NCBI GenBank assembly: GCA_965140785.1
Contig: OZ223519.1
Location: forward strand, 160,001 to 224,000
DNA length: 64,000 nucleotides
Reading direction: 5' to 3'
DNA from: an uncultured Ruficoccus sp.
GTDB lineage: Bacteria > Verrucomicrobiota > Verrucomicrobiia > Opitutales > Cerasicoccaceae
The number at the start of each line of letters is the position of its first letter. The stretch's first letter is position 1. Under the pieces are notes generated by a model, which searched no databases, had not been told where the DNA came from, and worked only from the letters and a program-made list of their open reading frames with translations. Shown here piece after piece: positions 26,426 through 31,284 of this stretch. The position numbers were made by a program, and so were the translations under genes.

Positions 26426-28017
26426 CGGACTTTAATTCCTTGCTGCTAATCCTCGCCATCGTCATCCCGCTGGCTGCGGCGGTGCTGCTGTTTTTCGGGC
26501 AAAAGCTCGGCAACTGCGCCGCCAAGCTCATCGCCGGGATCGGTTTTCTGGCCCCGGCCGCCATCGCGCTGTGGCTGTGGGGTAACTTCGGCGACGCCGC
26601 GCACAACGCCGCCGGCTACGCCTACCTGAGCCAGTTCGACCTGGGGATGAAGGAAACGCTCGGCATCAGCCTCTACCTGGGGCTCAACGGCATCTCCGCG
26701 CCGCTGTTTCTGCTGGCCGGGATCGTCGGGCTGGCCGCCGGCTGGCAGGCCATGAACTCGAAGGCCGAGCGACTGCCGCAGTATCTGCTGCTCCTGCTGG
26801 TCATGCAGGCCGGACTGATGGGCGTCTTTGCCTCGATCGACATTTTCTTCTTCTACTTCTTCCACGAACTGGCGCTGATCCCGACCTTTATCATGATCGG
26901 TATCTGGGGCGGGGCCGGGCGCCGCTCGGCCGCGATGGAGATGACCATTTACCTGACGCTTGGAGCGATGCTCTCACTGCTCGGGCTGATCTACATCTAC
27001 AAGGCCACCGACTGGACGGGCTTCGACCTGATCGCGCTGCGCGAGTATGTGGCGGCGAACAGCATCTCCGATGTCGTTCAGCACAACATCTTCGGGCTGC
27101 TGCTGTTTGGCTTCGGCATCCTCGTTTCGCTCTTTCCCTTCCACTCGTGGGCGCCGCGCGGGTACGCCGCCGCCCCCACAGCCAACGCCATGCTCCACGC
27201 CGGGGTGCTGAAAAAGTTCGGCCTCTACGGGCTCGTCCAGATCGCGGCCCCACTGCTGCCGCTGGGCGCGCTGGAGTGGAATCCGCTGCTGATCTGGCTG
27301 GCGCTGGGGAATATTCTTTTCATCGGTCTGGTGACGATCGCCCAGCGCGACCTCAAGCTCATGATTGGTTACAGCTCGGTCATGCACATGGGCTACATCT
27401 TCCTCGGGATCGCCACCCTGTCGGTGGCCGGGGTCGGCGGCGCGGTCATCCTGATGTTCGCGCACGGCCTGTCCGTGGCGCTGATGTTCCTGCTCTCCAC
27501 CGCCGTTTACGACCGCACCGGCACCTACGACATGCGCGACATGGGCGGCCTCGGCCTGAAGGCCCCGGTTCTGGCCGGCTTCTTCGTCGCCGCGACCATG
27601 GCCAGCATCGGCTTGCCGGGCTTCGCCAACTTCTGGGGCGAGTTCACCATCTTCATCGCCCTGTGGCAAAATCACCCCTGGGCGGTGGCTCCGGCTGTGC
27701 TCGGGGTGGTCATCTCGGCTATCTACGGGCTGCGTGCCTCCGCCGCGATTTTCATGGGACCGCCGACCGAGTCCTTCCAGGCAGCCAGCGCGGGCAAGCC
27801 CATCGGCGACATTACCCGTGCCGAGCGCATCCCGGCGATTATTCTTTTCCTCGGTCTGGTGCTGGTCGGTTTCTGGCCGCGCTCGATCTCCAACACGATT
27901 GACCAGCAACTGATGAGCGAACCCGTCTATCAGTCCCGCGTACTCTCCACGGTCCCGGCTCCGGCGGCACCCACGCCCGCCGCCAACGGCCATGAACACG
28001 AGGAGTCGGCATCATGA
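26422..28017 (+). CDS. nuoM: NADH-quinone oxidoreductase subunit M
   Basis: PFHSWAP, YSSVMHMG, GLPGFANFWGE; start MTDFNS overlapping the nuoL stop. Confidence 0.94.
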   Translation: MTDFNSLLLILAIVIPLAAAVLLFFGQKLGNCAAKLIAGIGFLAPAAIALWLWGNFGDAAHNAAGYAYLSQFDLGMKETLGISLYLGLNGISAPLFLLAGIVGLAAGWQAMNSKAERLPQYLLLLLVMQAGLMGVFASIDIFFFYFFHELALIPTFIMIGIWGGAGRRSAAMEMTIYLTLGAMLSLLGLIYIYKATDWTGFDLIALREYVAANSISDVVQHNIFGLLLFGFGILVSLFPFHSWAPRGYAAAPTANAMLHAGVLKKFGLYGLVQIAAPLLPLGALEWNPLLIWLALGNILFIGLVTIAQRDLKLMIGYSSVMHMGYIFLGIATLSVAGVGGAVILMFAHGLSVALMFLLSTAVYDRTGTYDMRDMGGLGLKAPVLAGFFVAATMASIGLPGFANFWGEFTIFIALWQNHPWAVAPAVLGVVISAIYGLRASAAIFMGPPTESFQAASAGKPIGDITRAERIPAIILFLGLVLVGFWPRSISNTIDQQLMSEPVYQSRVLSTVPAPAAPTPAANGHEHEESAS

Positions 28018-29534
28018 ACAAGGAACTTCTCAACCAGCTCTCGGAGCAATTCGTATCGACCAACCAGTGGGGCGCCCTCTGGCCGGAAATTTCGCTGGCC
28101 CTGCTCGCCGTGCTGGTCCTGCTGATCGACCTGTTCGCCCCCCGCGTGCGCGACCGGGCCGTGCCCTTCGCGGCCATCGGCGGGCAGATTGTGATTCTTG
28201 CCATTCTGGTCTCGAAGCTGGGCACCGGTACCGGCGAGGAGCAGCTTCTCTTTGGCGGCATGGTGCTGACGACGAATCTGGCGGCGGTCATGCAGGTGTT
28301 TTTCCTGCTCGCCTCGATCCTGGTCTGCTGGCTGGGCGCGATCTACCTGCGCAAGCAGCCGCTGCCGCGGATGGAGTTCTACTGCCTCACGCTGATGGTG
28401 ACGGCGGCTCTCATGCTGCTGGGCCAGAGCTCGAACTTCGTCATGCTCTTTGTCGCGCTGGAAACGGTGACAATCGGCTTCTACGTGCTGGTCAGCTACG
28501 GGCGTAACAGCGCCTTCTCGCTCGAAGGCGGCCTCAAGTACCTCGTCCTCGGTGGCACCAGCACCGCGATCCTGCTCTTCGGCATCGTGCTGCTCTACGG
28601 GGTGGCCGGCGACCCGAGCCTGCCCGGCCACACCAGCGATTCCCTCAATTTCCTCGCTCTGGAGCAGTTCCTGGCCGCCAACTCCGGCAACGTCCTGGCC
28701 AAGGTCGGCGTCGTTCTGGTGCTGTGCGGCATCTGCTTCAAGATCGGGGCCGTGCCCTTCCAGATCTGGATCCCCGACGTTTATCAGGGTGCGCCCACGC
28801 CGGTGACGGCCTTCCTCGCCGTCTCCTCCAAGGCTGCGGGCTTTATTGTCCTGATCAACCTGCTGACGGGTCCCTTCGGCCCGATGAAGGAGCTGACCCT
28901 GCCGCTGCTCTCGGCCATCACGATCGTGACGATCCTCTTCGGCAACTTCACCGCGCTGGGCCAGCGCAACGTCAAGCGCGTCATCGGCCTGTCCGGGATT
29001 GCCCACGCCGGGTACCTCCTGTTGGGCATCGTGGCGCTGATCCAGGGGGTCGAACTGGCCGCCTGGGCCGTGATTTTCTATTTGTTCACCTACCTCTTCG
29101 GCTCCTTCACCGTCTTCGGCGTCATGGCCCATCTGGCCGGACCCGACGACGAAAACCAGGAGGTCGACCACTATGTGAATCTCGCCCGCCGTCAGCCGTT
29201 TCTGGCCGGGGTGCTGGCCATCGGGCTGGGCTCGCTGGCCGGGATTCCGCCGCTGGCCGGCTTCATCGGGAAGGTTTTCCTCTTCGTGGTCGCTTTCCAG
29301 GCCAACCTCTACCTGCTGCTGGCCGTGGCCATCATCGGGGTGGTGATCTCGATCTACTACTACTTTGGCTGGATGCGCGAAGCCTTCTTTCAGGAGCAGT
29401 CCTGGCCCGAGGGTAAGGAAGAAAAGCTCGAACCCCTCAAAGTCTGCCTCTGCAATAAGGTCGCGCTGGCCGTGCTCGCCATCATCACCGTGGTGCTCGG
29501 CATCTACCAGGGCGGCTTCGGCGCCGGATTCTAA
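28014..29534 (+). CDS. nuoN: NADH-quinone oxidoreductase subunit N
   Basis: FKIGAVPFQIWIPDVYQGAPTPV, SLAGIPPLAGFIGK. Confidence 0.95.
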   Translation: MNKELLNQLSEQFVSTNQWGALWPEISLALLAVLVLLIDLFAPRVRDRAVPFAAIGGQIVILAILVSKLGTGTGEEQLLFGGMVLTTNLAAVMQVFFLLASILVCWLGAIYLRKQPLPRMEFYCLTLMVTAALMLLGQSSNFVMLFVALETVTIGFYVLVSYGRNSAFSLEGGLKYLVLGGTSTAILLFGIVLLYGVAGDPSLPGHTSDSLNFLALEQFLAANSGNVLAKVGVVLVLCGICFKIGAVPFQIWIPDVYQGAPTPVTAFLAVSSKAAGFIVLINLLTGPFGPMKELTLPLLSAITIVTILFGNFTALGQRNVKRVIGLSGIAHAGYLLLGIVALIQGVELAAWAVIFYLFTYLFGSFTVFGVMAHLAGPDDENQEVDHYVNLARRQPFLAGVLAIGLGSLAGIPPLAGFIGKVFLFVVAFQANLYLLLAVAIIGVVISIYYYFGWMREAFFQEQSWPEGKEEKLEPLKVCLCNKVALAVLAIITVVLGIYQGGFGAGF

Positions 29535-29580
29535 CGCGGATTCGTTTTTTTTATCTGGGCTTGTGCAGTCCAGACCCGCC

Positions 29581-29789
29581 CCGGGTTGCACCCGGTGGCA
29601 CTGAGGGGAACAAGTTGCAGGACCGAGTCCTGCACCTGTGATGTGCTTCCGCATCACGGCATGGGCAACCCGTGATTAACACCGGCTCAAACGAACTTCG
29701 CCAAGCACGACCTGCGGGAGGCGCGAAACTTGTAGGCAAATGGGTATTGACTGCAAGTTCCCCTACGCGGCCAGAAAGGCCGCTACCCC
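29581..29789 (+). repeat. GTAG multi-hairpin repeat copy with a 145-bp insert in the loop of its middle hairpin
   Basis: CCGGG-TTGCA-CCCGG TGGCACTGAGGGGAAC[insert]GTTCCCCTAC GCGGCC-AGAAA-GGCCGC TACCCC; flanks match 37246-37309 and 39765-39823. Confidence 0.75.
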
Positions 29790-29841
29790 TGATTGCTCGT
29801 CCAGCCGGACCCTTTCTGGCTCCGATGGGGCTATCGCCCCA

Positions 29842-29899
29842 TTTAGATTAACTACACAAGCCAAGGGCGCAGTCAGCATTTAAATTATTGACCTGACCC
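29842..29899. repeat. 58-bp direct repeat, left copy
   Basis: 49/58 ungapped identity to 30653-30710 by manual alignment. Confidence 0.85.
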
Positions 29900-29945
29900 C
29901 TTCGGGTGACCCCCTAGGTGCCTTTCGATAGAAAGTAATATTTAA

Positions 29946-30452
29946 TCAATAAATTTCAATAATATCAACTTCTTCTCCTTCCGTAGGAATTTTCATTAAG
30001 TCAGGGACCATACGATTTCCAACATTAGCATTGTCCTCCTTCAGTAAATCTTGACCTCTTGCATTGTGAGGATCAAACTTAATAGAGGAACAATTGAATT
30101 CCCCTGCTTGATATTTCTTTTCAATCTCTTGAAGTAATGCAAAAGCCTCTTGCTGCCCAGGCCTCAACTGCTTCTTTTTTTCAAGCTTTCGATAATAGAA
30201 ACCAGGCCGTCCCATGCAGTACACCATCAAGGCTGTTCCTCTGTCACAAAGTGGATGGCAGATTACTTTGCGCAAGACATCTATGTTTCCATCTGCATTG
30301 AAGTTCCCTGCGAACTGGTGAAGCTCCTCGGAGGTCTCAACCTCAGAAAGAGCTAGATCCAACTTTCTTTCTGACTCATTAATATCATCAGAAACCCACT
30401 GATCGAGTAGCAGATATTTGAGACGACTCATTTGTTTTTCCGAATATTTCAT
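29946..30452 (-). CDS. DUF4274-like protein, putative toxin immunity protein
   Basis: ELHQFAGNFNADG...VICHPLCDRGTALMVY matches the DUF4274 pattern LH..A..NWDDG..P.CD..TAL..Y; low GC; starts 5 nt after a toxin-like ORF. Confidence 0.7.
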   Translation of the reverse strand: MKYSEKQMSRLKYLLLDQWVSDDINESERKLDLALSEVETSEELHQFAGNFNADGNIDVLRKVICHPLCDRGTALMVYCMGRPGFYYRKLEKKKQLRPGQQEAFALLQEIEKKYQAGEFNCSSIKFDPHNARGQDLLKEDNANVGNRMVPDLMKIPTEGEEVDIIEIY

Positions 30453-30457
30453 AATAT

Positions 30458-30652
30458 TTACCTAAGTGGAGCAATACTACGGCCCACACCAATTCTTAAT
30501 TGGTCAGCGTATCCTTGGGCCACACGAGCAGCATCAGCATTTGATATATTAGGATTACTCTCTATAATGCGATCAAGTTTACTCCAGACCGCGTCATTGT
30601 AAAGCGGATGCTGCGTCCAATGTTGCCCAGGCCCAAGCCTGATTCCGTTATT
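30458..30652 (-). pseudogene. Orphan C-terminal tip of an AHH/HNH-like nuclease toxin (~64 aa)
   Basis: NNGIRL...H...HPLYNDAVWSKLDRI resembles the NG.L..H..H..Y...V...L core of AHH nucleases; N-terminal part absent. Confidence 0.6.
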
Positions 30653-30710
30653 TTTAGAATAACTACCCAAGTCAAGGGAGCTATCAGCATTTAAATGATT
30701 AACATGACCC
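30653..30710. repeat. 58-bp direct repeat, right copy
   Basis: See 29842-29899. Confidence 0.85.
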
Positions 30711-30852
30711 TTGTGCCTGCCATAAACATGGGTGGGGCCAGCCATGTGTGAGGCATGAGACAATGTCGGTCCGACGTTTTGGGCGTAGCCCGGACGTTGG
30801 ACCGAGGGTGCAGCCCTCGGCTACCGCGGGTCTGGGGCGCGGAGCCCCAGAA

Positions 30853-31269
30853 TCATTCGCCGATGATTTTGATGAGGGCGCGTTTTTTGCGTTTGCCGTC
30901 GAACTCGCCATAAAAGATCTGCTCCCAGGGGCCGAAGTCGAGGCGGCCCTCGGTCACGGCGACGGTGACGTCACGGCCCATGATGGTGCGCTTGAGGTGG
31001 GCGTCGGCGTTGTCCTCGTAGCCGTTGTGGGCGTACTGGTCGTGGGGCTTTTCCGGGGCGAGCTTCTCCAGCCAGCGCTCGAAGTCGGCGTGCAGGCCGG
31101 ACTCGTCGTCGTTGATAAAGACGCTGGCGCTGATGTGCATGGCATTGACCAGGCACAACCCCTCCTGGATGCCACTCTCGCGCAGGGCGGTTTCGACCTC
31201 GTGGGTGATGTTGATCAACTGGCGGCGTTGCGGGATGTTGAACCAGAGTTCCTTGCGGTAAGATTTCAT
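30853..31269 (-). CDS. yjbQ: YjbQ/UPF0047 family protein (secondary thiamine-phosphate synthase)
   Basis: [32 protein letters not shown]. Confidence 0.9.
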
Positions 31270-31284
31270 AGGCCGGATCAAATG

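Follow-up and report, generated by a model that had tools for sequence, protein, structure and literature searches.

The locus lies in a window of 64,000 nucleotides, the whole stretch of DNA that was analysed, from an uncultured Ruficoccus sp. In the spacer between two host genes, one named nuoN by an earlier sequence-only reading and the other a yjbQ-like gene of the UPF0047 family, an insert of low GC content carries an intact DUF4274 gene and the remnant of an AHH-family nuclease toxin, with one partial copy (L and R) of a repeated element at each end. The features are as follows.

28014..29534, plus strand: left host gene, an open reading frame (ORF), nuoN by the earlier naming
29826..29841, plus strand: host hairpin GGGGC...GCCCC, directly left of the insert
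29842..30730, no strand: low-GC insert of 889 bp in the nuoN-UPF0047 spacer
29842..29916, plus strand: L, partial REPIN-like element (nhmmer model positions 21-83, E 3e-13)
29946..30452, minus strand: DUF4274 gene, intact, 168 aa (Pfam DUF4274, E 7.9e-12, 45.4 bits, cut-off 27)
30458-30763, minus strand: 101-aa ORF with an AHH match over residues 35-75 only
30458..30652, minus strand: AHH-family nuclease toxin remnant, the last 64 codons of that ORF (phmmer, alignment)
30653..30724, plus strand: R, partial REPIN-like element (nhmmer model positions 22-81, E 5.2e-11)
30653..30763, minus strand: the 37 codons preceding the toxin remnant, of repeat and flank origin, not toxin
30853..31281, minus strand: right host gene, UPF0047 (yjbQ-like; Pfam UPF0047, E 1.4e-37)

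The repeat search aligns 29842-29899 with 30653-30710 over 58 nt, at a start-to-start distance of 811 bp. The sequence-only reading had reported 49 identities in the ungapped alignment of these two stretches around 753 bp of low-GC DNA, and the recount returns the same figure (49/58, 84%) and a GC content of 42.0% for the enclosed DNA; both copies also keep ATTTAAAT and TGACCC, as it had stated. When the neighbourhoods of the two repeats are aligned locally with gaps, the score is 83, to be compared with 22.2 +/- 4.3 and a maximum of 40 in 300 shuffles, and the match widens to about 29842-29916 and 30653-30724. The GC content of the whole insert is 41.6%, that of its two ORFs, which are co-directional, 40.4% and 46.7%, and that of the surroundings 63.2% (nuoN), 60.6% (UPF0047 gene) and 61.7% (window).

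The limits of the insert follow from comparison with DNA that is without it. Homologues of the left host gene adjoin a UPF0047 gene in four genomes (G003, G004, G016 and G024), and in two sister species among them the 889 bp are missing, the spacer being about 226 bp long in G003 and about 403 bp in G004, with no copy of the repeat in either empty site. A GC-rich paralogous repeat at C47:106504-106815 aligns with the window as far as 29616 and resumes at 30731. The hairpin directly left of the insert has its counterpart after nuoN in both empty alleles, and for this reason the left flank of L was dropped as a candidate for a decayed second arm. The repeats, which had been taken for sites that bracket the insert from outside, are instead its two ends. 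Empty nuoN-yjbQ alleles had been anticipated and exist in the two sister species, but no single-site allele derived from this island was found, and since there is also no circle and no cassette at two places, the mobilisation of the cassette that had been proposed is left without support.

Searches around the insert were otherwise unproductive. It has no blastn match in plasmids; Rfam returns for 29400-31000 only a sub-threshold match to ALIL (16.6 bits vs 50, E 0.15); and predicted promoter and terminator sites in 29500-30900 are not more numerous than in shuffles. The assembled contigs of one sequencing run (X1) span the island without differences, and those of a second run (X2) neither cover 29970-30773 nor bridge that stretch, which is uninformative either way. 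Equally uninformative either way is that the assembled contigs of the two runs contain no joint that skips the island and no circle junction.

The DUF4274 protein has 14 relatives at E<=1e-5, and the ones with 62-74% identity over 99-100% of the query have lengths of 167-168 aa. Within the order it is matched in 2 of 301 genomes, the present one (G000) included. A homologue with 36% identity adjoins an Imm35 gene in G258, and a search for related DUF4274 loci across genome contigs confirmed no relative. From its position only, the protein is presumed to be the immunity protein of the AHH toxin.

The 101-aa ORF matches the Pfam AHH profile at positions 46-95 of 111 (E 0.005; its 17.2 bits miss the cut-off of 22.3), while three full relatives exceed that cut-off over positions 8-106. 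From the restriction of the match to residues 35-75 follows that toxin homology starts at codon 38 (NNGIRL), which directly follows the right repeat and is the point named by the sequence-only reading. With the remnant as query, phmmer finds 36 proteins at E<=1e-3, all matched at their extreme C-termini and ranging in length from 61 to 5694 aa; for the 101-aa ORF, a comparison with longer proteins gave no homologue at E<=1e-3. The Tox-AHH motif consists of [AG]HH and subsequent N, H, H and Y positions (PMC3482391, in excerpt). In the alignment with the relatives, the columns of N39, H48 and H52 do not vary and the Y can be seen, so that the remnant retains the N, H, H and Y positions; in the window ORF, repeat-derived sequence takes the place of the [AG]HH motif and of the next 30 or so residues of the relatives. 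Judged by this alignment, the toxin tip is decapitated, with its catalytic motif lost, while the DUF4274 gene is intact, in agreement with the earlier description of a cut toxin beside a whole immunity gene.

As R supplies, on the minus strand, codons to the 5' end of the 101-aa ORF, consider the case where the 58-mer is a conserved part of the toxin gene and L the start of a second orphan tip, in an array of Rhs/CDI type. R is indeed in frame with the toxin remnant, and MAFFT puts its GHV under the AHH of the relatives. However, the full-length relatives lack the 58-mer and share nothing else with residues 1-37, and in L the frame that R keeps open is interrupted by a stop codon. Residues 15-37 find other matches in the genome only in REPIN copies on contig C39, and the reading of the 37 codons recurs in non-coding REPIN copies, as in the tail of the ORF C39:143399-143671. 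The repeat, moreover, is half of a palindrome in non-coding positions; it borders a transposase gene and is located between housekeeping genes in other organisms. A coding duplication is therefore scarcely credible. The sequence-only reading had named three conditions that would refute it (a coding duplication, a repeat that occurs nowhere else, and no empty allele), and none of them holds.

That reading also expected the repeat elsewhere, and an nhmmer profile built from 10 full copies finds 17 clear copies in the genome (E<=1e-3), namely these 10, five half copies, and L and R, clustered at seven loci. The full element is a REPIN-like palindrome of ~80 bp, in which two inverted REP arms are separated by an asymmetric spacer of 28 nt, and the full copies form long hairpins when folded (-21 and -20.6 kcal/mol, z -7.1 and -7.5, with 0/200 shuffles as good). 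The arms start with GGGGTCA. A tag, GTAG or CGTC, conserved at the base of the REP palindrome is part of the definition in PMC3733652 (in excerpt); GTAG occurs here only in the asymmetric spacer of the copies of this genus, and not in symmetric copies from a metagenome. At 13 of 34 arm ends a second TGACCCC-like heptamer lies 5-12 nt farther out, compared with 3.3% of random 29-nt segments.

L consists of one REP arm and the asymmetric spacer, the other arm being missing; after it comes a short stretch in which the arm terminus is repeated in tandem (TGACCCC...). It is identical to the copy at C39:143597-143679 in 64 of 71 positions, and R to C39 copies in 59 of 64, so that each is nearer to the C39 copies (90-92%) than to the other (84%). 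Both break off at the same model position, after TCTAAA; this shared break point, seen in two copies, would also be explained if a copy that was truncated beforehand had been duplicated once, long ago. Neither folds better than its shuffles (L z -0.6 and +0.1), which means that an enzyme in need of a hairpin may at present be unable to act on them. By their match to the profile, L and R are truncated copies of a REP/REPIN family that has its own transposase-like gene. Because REP/REPIN families are of a known kind, the proposal that the site is new in kind is unsupported.

The association with an HUH or RAYT transposase that had been suggested is found elsewhere in the genome, where an ORF of 308 aa sits between REP arms in inverted order in two units.

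C10:480074-481079: RAYT-like unit with inverted flanking arms
C43:224653-225658: RAYT-like unit with inverted flanking arms, its ORF of 308 aa at C43:224708-225634

The two units share 99.0% identity across 1006 bp, up to the outer ends of the arms, where it stops; the genome has in addition one RAYT remnant, and a 144-aa integrase fragment lies beside one of the units. The 308-aa protein matches Pfam Y1_Tnp (E 4.4e-9, 36.9 bits, cut-off 23), and its best NCBIfam match is REP_Tyr_transpos, the REP-associated tyrosine transposase, with 64.3 bits (below the equivalog cut-off of 80), the score for IS200 being 18.6 bits. H62-Y63-H64 and Y121 are visible in the alignment and, by the positions in Escherichia coli TnpA-REP, are the putative HUH motif and catalytic tyrosine; that enzyme cuts at CT beside REP and carries out strand transfer in vitro (PMC3479197, in excerpt). 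No RAYT match at E<=1e-10 was obtained in the sister genome G001, yet REP-bounded low-GC ORFs are present there.

With a Y1 transposase of the right superfamily present in two near-identical copies, L and R could be the direct-order ends of a non-autonomous transposon of IS200/IS605 type, a passenger-carrying element of 0.8-0.9 kb that the enzyme would move in trans as a single-stranded circle. The position of the repeats at the very ends of the insert, in direct order, and the absence of a repeat copy from the empty sites are as such a model would have it. Against this, neither end forms a significant hairpin, the two points of putative insertion have no motif in common on their 5' side, and the genome contains no second 889-bp unit. 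The inner boundary of R, furthermore, coincides with the outer boundary of L, which the model does not need, and the arms around the enzyme's own gene are inverted rather than direct. We regard this transposon as distinctly unlikely.

The distribution of the repeat points in another direction. Sixteen of the 17 copies touch segments below 45% GC, which account for 7.2% of the genome, and their polarity relative to the adjacent low-GC ORFs is the same in 9 of 10 full copies (five loci), as well as in L and R. Among low-GC segments of at least 600 bp in this genome, 8 of 91 have an element. Two arrays, on C12 and C43, have one unit per inter-element interval and abut the RAYT gene or the RAYT remnant; the C12 array has three ORFs at 38-39% GC, and the ORFs of the C43 array are at 26-42%. 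Varied immunity-type genes lie between other copies, as had been predicted: the units hold Imm30, Sel1, HEPN, DUF3997, toxin remnants and small co-oriented ORFs, and others hold short ORFs and then membrane proteins after an Rhs toxin. The idea that cassettes are cargo within arm-bounded units was dropped, as the outer arm ends face the cassettes, from which follows that these lie between the elements and not inside them.

One site can be followed across species. After the stop codon of the host gene C12:33856-34887, a REP arm is common to this genome and G002, and a decayed arm is present in G001; at this conserved REP site G000 has three cassettes, G002 a single Imm74-like one, and G001 and G004 lack any. 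In the four sister genomes nothing matches the C12 or C43 array cassettes at the DNA level (E<=1e-10).

In a more distant organism, known from metagenome contigs (GC 0.62-0.72), the arm is identical over 21 nt and the RAYT, flanked by the same arms, is 55% identical. There, the same arm forms short symmetric REPINs in GC-rich surroundings, 1 of 26 REPIN loci being low-GC overall. Hence the repeat does not need cassettes, and its link with them is not intrinsic to it. A search of genome contigs for the exact REP-arm pattern gave one other MAG record only, and a search of viral contigs none.

From such observations it may be argued that an ordinary REPIN/RAYT family has passively colonised dispensable AT-rich orphan islands, into which it spread preferentially. 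L and R would then be decayed singlets from one truncated copy, without part in the arrival of the cassette, and the island would have come by unrelated illegitimate or homologous recombination. REPINs are established to leave singlet remnants (PMC3337134, in excerpt), and the same arm is dispersed without cassettes in another organism; the 16% by which L and R differ is compatible with an old duplication, and the poor folding of both and the lack of any moved cassette point the same way. Random insertion does not, however, predict one element per unit with 9 of 10 in the same polarity, nor the absence of elements from 83 of the 91 low-GC segments, nor the keeping of a REP arm at one host position in three species with differing cassettes. 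Passive colonisation is a plausible account of the data, but less likely than not.

The preferred reading, to which we assign a probability of about 0.5, is that L, R and the orphan AHH-tip/DUF4274 module together make up a foreign insert of 889 bp, and that REP elements are the joints of such modules in this genus. Each low-GC unit of toxin remnant and immunity gene would end in one REP element, with the units co-oriented, and arrays would grow and change at fixed REP sites. Most likely, modules would be joined at REP copies, either by a RAYT that nicks single-stranded DNA beside a REP and ligates it to another end, or by recombination between REP copies, and the immunity gene would then be kept for the protection it may give against the matching toxin of neighbours. 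Several observations weigh against this reading: no cassette recurs at a second place, the arm forms cassette-free REPINs in the metagenome organism, only 8 of the 91 low-GC segments have an element, G001 gave no RAYT match, L and R fold poorly, their common break point is known from two copies, and the NCBIfam score lies below the equivalog cut-off. We infer a part of the REP copies in acquisition, and the near confinement of the repeat to the borders of foreign toxin-immunity modules hints at a new route by which such genes are gathered.

A stronger version, where the RAYT-like HUH enzyme and the REP sites form a device that collects cassettes by nicking beside a REP and joining incoming toxin-immunity DNA, is put forward tentatively and must be called doubtful. 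If true, it would be an integron-like system built on single-strand HUH chemistry, RAYTs would gain a job useful to the host, and co-oriented arrays of orphan immunity genes would be built at fixed REP landing sites. To our knowledge, the moving of cargo genes by RAYTs has never been demonstrated, the host role of RAYTs and REPINs is an open question, and the gathering of orphan immunity genes is understood for few systems. A literature search for RAYT or REPIN together with immunity, gene cassettes, Rhs or polymorphic toxins gave, within the library searched, no paper linking them. A REP family at toxin-immunity joints thus offers a testable link between the role of RAYT/REPIN and the gathering of orphan immunity genes; if the link is passive, there is still a new REP/RAYT family in Verrucomicrobiota, and the locus is an ordinary orphan immunity module.

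Among known systems, the nearest for the repeat is the REPIN-RAYT of Pseudomonas and enterobacteria, with which it has in common the doublet of inverted short arms that folds into a long hairpin, a Y1/HUH gene between inverted arms, an arm sequence conserved together with the enzyme across organisms, and singlet remnants. REPIN-RAYT systems are recognised by a single-copy, housekeeping-like enzyme gene and abundant dispersed extragenic repeats (PMC5581495, in excerpt), a pattern that the metagenome organism seems to follow. Here, in contrast, about 17-22 copies are clustered at seven loci instead of being dispersed, and in this genus they are nearly confined to the edges of low-GC toxin/immunity units. 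The enzyme gene occurs twice, in IS-like units of 1006 bp that are 99% identical, with a remnant besides, and the protein of 308 aa has a long C-terminal part and scores below the NCBIfam equivalog cut-off.

For the genes between the repeats, the comparison is with rAID-1 of Bacteroidales, defined by a tyrosine recombinase, XerD-like and located 5', with no less than 44% identity to the one of B. fragilis, and at least two co-directional downstream genes with GC <=41% (10.1101/471110, in excerpt). Co-oriented low-GC arrays of orphan immunity genes, repeated intergenic sequences and an enzyme that breaks and joins DNA occur in both systems as far as that excerpt describes them, and runs of two or more co-directional low-GC genes are found here. 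The likeness would also suit a cassette of integron or rAID type, with a tyrosine recombinase acting on the repeat. Yet Pfam scans of 47 array-associated ORFs show no complete tyrosine recombinase, only the integrase fragment of 144 aa, and the gene that the repeat flanks encodes an HUH enzyme instead; the probability of such a cassette is very small. Compared with rAID-1 as excerpted, the enzyme is an HUH Y1 transposase and not XerD-like, a REP palindrome serves as the repeat, the scattered arrays are short, with 1-5 units, and the phylum differs. With no XerD-like recombinase at the loci scanned, the island is not a member of rAID, to which the sequence-only reading had likened the site-bounded immunity cassette; that interpretation as a whole is partly supported.

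Polyimmunity loci and orphan toxin cassettes, as treated in the available part of PMC3482391, likewise bring together diverse immunity genes, some with toxin C-terminal remnants, near Rhs-type toxins, and the toxin here belongs to the Tox-AHH family of the polymorphic toxin systems described there. In those loci recombination runs through conserved coding sequence, whereas the joint here is a non-coding palindrome; the 300,000 characters covered of that text have no mention of palindrom, IS200 or integron. Integron cassettes (attC) share with the present units a single structured and imperfect palindrome for each unit, contents that vary at a fixed site, and co-oriented units that look promoterless; unlike in integrons, the element is a REP doublet, and no IntI was found at the arrays. 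The REP/RAYT family is thus of a known kind, and it is its integron-like deployment that is unusual.

Between the repeat copies L (29842-29899) and R (30653-30710), 49 of 58 nucleotides are identical and the start-to-start distance is 811 bp, which confirms the direct repeat proposed in the sequence-only reading. When the two neighbourhoods are aligned locally with gaps, the score is 83, compared with 22.2 ± 4.3 for 300 shuffles, and the similar stretches reach about 29842-29916 and 30653-30724. The GC content is 42.0% between the copies and 61.7% in the window, and the island is flanked by two genes:

28014-29534, plus strand, left flanking ORF, named nuoN in the sequence-only reading
30853-31281, minus strand, right flanking gene, UPF0047

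The nuoN/UPF0047 pair is also adjacent in two genomes from other families of the order. In the same-genus sister genomes G003 and G004, the two genes are separated by gaps of about 226 and 403 bp that hold no repeat copy, and these are empty nuoN-yjbQ alleles. The hairpin directly past nuoN in these genomes is the counterpart of window 29826-29841, from which it follows that the insert starts at 29842. A paralogous copy at C47:106504-106815, in the window's own genome, matches the window through 29616 and then from 30731 onward, which shows where a GC-rich dispersed repeat resumes, and with these two limits the insert is 889 bp. The island is an insertion whose left end is L and whose right end is R plus about 6-20 nt. 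GC-rich dispersed repeats (29538-29814 and 30731-30856) border it, with further copies on contigs C13, C26, C30, C42 and C47 and in sister genomes. Since contigs from three sequencing runs skip 29611-29753, these 143 bp represent a nested insert in some repeat copies.

The minus strand between the repeats carries a 168-aa ORF with a DUF4274 match (E 7.9e-12) and, 5 nt upstream of it, an ORF of 101 aa. Relatives of the DUF4274 protein with 62-74% identity across 99-100% of its length measure 167-168 aa, and the immunity-type gene is therefore intact, as had been claimed. Residues 35-75 of the 101-aa ORF align, with a score short of the gathering threshold, to the latter half of the AHH nuclease profile (positions 46-95 of 111), and the last 64 residues of the ORF match the extreme C-termini of 36 proteins of 61-5694 aa at E ≤ 1e-3. 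Eleven of these were inspected; in nine, the AHH motif and a further 25-30 residues precede the NNGIRL-type segment, and three of the nine exceed the Pfam threshold for AHH, with a match spanning profile positions 8-106. In the window ORF, 37 codons stand in for the part with the AHH motif and have only one H and one V in common with the relatives, while residues 15-37 match nothing else in the genome except repeat copies on another contig. The toxin is truncated precisely at R, in agreement with the earlier proposal that it had been cut at the repeat. A coding duplication, in which the 58-mer would itself be toxin sequence, is among the less likely readings and was rejected, because L has a stop in the frame that is open in R and because the 37 codons differ from the relatives and match only repeats; the full-length toxins have no stretch that aligns with the 58-mer. 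In G258, a genome of the order, two DUF4274 homologues with equal scores (L054 and L055, at C1:1428352-1428816 and 1433255-1433719) lie 4.9 kb apart, one of them adjoining an Imm35 gene, an arrangement suggestive of a polyimmunity block that has been duplicated.

In the genome that contains the window, a DNA-level search locates the repeat on four further contigs. Comparison of the copies reveals an element of about 80 bp, in which two inverted arms, each of about 22-26 nt, are parted by a 28-nt asymmetric spacer; the inner end of an arm is ATTTAAAT or a variant, and the outer end is TGACCCC. A profile built from ten full copies detects 17 copies at E ≤ 1e-3 (the 10 full, 5 one-armed, and L and R), together with three additional weaker single arms, so that the genome scan proposed in the sequence-only reading reveals a repeat that is not private to the island. 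Rfam contains no family matching it. Full copies form long hairpins (-21 kcal/mol, z -7.1); neither L nor R folds better than its shuffles. L covers model positions 21-83 and R positions 22-81, each consisting of one arm and the spacer, and both stop after TCTAAA, where the second arm is expected. The two are 84% identical to each other and 90-92% identical to the copies on contig C39, and they are REP-family copies. A second TGACCCC-like heptamer occurs 5-12 nt beyond 13 of 34 arm ends, compared with 3.3% of random segments, and the outer heptamer often belongs to a 13-19 nt tandem duplication of arm terminus and flank (for example at C10:294876, C43:224655 and C12:36930, and for L at window 29894-29918). 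This duplication may record nicking or repeated insertion at the arm ends.

At two sites of the genome, a pair of inverted single arms encloses a gene:

C10:480129-481055, RAYT-like ORF, 308 aa
C43:224708-225634, RAYT-like ORF, 308 aa

The two units are 99.0% identical across 1006 bp, a match that runs up to the arms' outer ends and no further, and the start of a decayed third RAYT gene lies at C12:36985. The protein matches Pfam Y1_Tnp (E 4.4e-9), and H-Y-H at residues 62-64 and Y121 are visible in the alignment; an HUH/RAYT-type transposase was one of two kinds of enzyme that the sequence-only reading named as possible neighbours of the copies. Among NCBIfam models, 'REP-associated tyrosine transposase' fits the protein best, with 64.3 bits and so under the cut-off of 80, and IS200 reaches 18.6. 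The anatomy of repeat and enzyme gene is that of a REP/REPIN-RAYT system, as the literature describes it (PMC5581495, PMC3479197), and the present system has two IS-like traits, a duplicated enzyme gene and low repeat number. An IS200/IS605-like passenger transposon is an unlikely alternative for the island. The repeat belongs to the REP/REPIN kind, within which its copy number, its clustering and the number of its enzyme genes are unusual. Of 16 genomes of the family, this one included, 8 have a RAYT homologue: that of sister genome G002 is 84% identical with REP arms directly beside it, that of G003 is partial (89%), and at E ≤ 1e-10 none was found in G001 or G004. Directly after one RAYT unit lies a fragment of 144 aa from the C-terminus of a recombinase of the phage-integrase family (C10:481100-481534; L016:3101-3535), and this unit may have landed in or beside such a gene.

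All but one of the 17 copies touch a segment below 45% GC, a class of DNA that accounts for 7.2% of the genome; among the 91 low-GC segments of at least 600 bp, 8 hold a copy. The copies are grouped at seven loci, where they separate small ORFs of 26-42% GC.

Arrays and loci with repeat copies in the window's own genome
C12 array: host gene, arm, 171-aa ORF, element, DUF3997 ORF, element, HEPN ORF, arm, RAYT remnant
C43 array, first part: element, 212-aa ORF, element, 66-aa ORF and 110-aa membrane ORF, RAYT unit
C43 array, past the RAYT unit: 88-aa ORF, element, 127-aa ORF, arm
C39 array: 363-aa ORF; IS3-type element; Imm30 gene (E 2e-14); 175-aa ORF with Kelch-like ORF; each preceded by an element
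C39:140932-142112 (L012:4933-6113): the IS3-type element (HTH ORF and rve integrase-core ORF), between a cassette and the next element
C10 locus: Rhs toxin, small membrane ORF, element, 65-aa ORF overlapping 105-aa membrane ORF, element
C10, other locus: single arm, then Sel1 ORF

With respect to the low-GC ORFs next to them, nine of the ten full copies are oriented alike, as are L and R; the element usually lies 0-70 bp past the stop codon of the preceding ORF, and an ATG inside the arm is the start of several short downstream ORFs. Varied immunity genes had been predicted between the copies, and this holds for a few, such as Imm30; since most scanned ORFs are without a Pfam family (12 of 22 array-associated ORFs in one scan, 18 of 25 in another), 'immunity' is shown for few only. 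The main rival to the reading favoured below, that REPINs spread passively into dispensable AT-rich islands, is less probable than that reading and more probable than the other alternatives. A GC-rich gene beside the C43 array (C43:226892-227625; L013:6893-7625) has multiple copies in the sister genomes, seen as numerous matches of 64-85% identity, often at contig ends, and is probably another mobile element.

Element DNA is present in 5 of 41 related genomes, this one included; the others are three of the four of the same genus and one of another genus, in which only the arm is conserved. The arms likewise lie at the edges of low-GC small ORFs in G001, G002, G003 and G007, and in two of these cases the ORFs adjoin Rhs or YD-repeat fragments. 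Past the stop codon of the host gene C12:33856-34887, a REP arm occupies the same position in the window's genome, with three cassettes, and in G002, with one 111-aa ORF (weak Imm74 match, 23.4 bits, cut-off 27.1); the arm is decayed in G001, G001 and G004 have no cassette there, and G003 has unrelated DNA and no arm. The exact 21-nt arm pattern also occurs at 26 metagenome loci (27 rows, one duplicate), most from one assembly of 66-70% GC, where the arms pair as short symmetric palindromes 0-27 nt apart; only L066 is low-GC overall. The central few bases of these palindromes (L059-L084) vary among copies with self-complementarity kept. One locus carries a RAYT 55% identical to the present one, flanked by the same arms and lying between an oxidase-like and a transporter-like gene. 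Joint conservation across organisms supports arm and RAYT as a functional pair. In the metagenome organism the repeat behaves as an ordinary dispersed REPIN, and the cassette link is a trait of the genus that the window comes from and is not inherent in the repeat.

The reading we favour, at about even odds, is that REP copies are joints at which toxin-immunity modules would become strung together. It is based on one element per unit, uniform polarity, arrays that adjoin a RAYT gene, a conserved arm with changing neighbours, and the fact that L and R are not mutual closest relatives, yet end at the same nucleotide. RAYT might cut beside a REP, and the end might then be joined to unrelated DNA at a fixed position; E. 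coli TnpA-REP cleaves at a CT next to a REP and, in vitro, can ligate the resulting end to another strand (PMC3479197), so that chemistry for such junctions is available. Recombination between REP copies would serve equally well. Against REP copies as joints count four points: no cassette turned up at more than one place (for the C12 and C43 cassettes, no DNA match in the four sister genomes at E ≤ 1e-10), G001 has REP-bounded ORFs without detectable RAYT, L and R lack a hairpin, and the shared break point is known from two copies only.

Within the literature searched, no paper links RAYT or REPIN to immunity, gene cassettes, Rhs or polymorphic toxins. A tyrosine-recombinase system is a less likely alternative. 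The analogy with rAID-1 of Bacteroidales drawn in the sequence-only reading holds for low-GC, co-oriented orphan immunity genes and a repeated intergenic sequence (10.1101/471110), and fails for the defining recombinase, of which Pfam scans of 47 array-associated ORFs found no complete example. A further parallel to the arrays is offered by the heterogeneous polyimmunity loci that Zhang et al. 2012 describe (PMC3482391).
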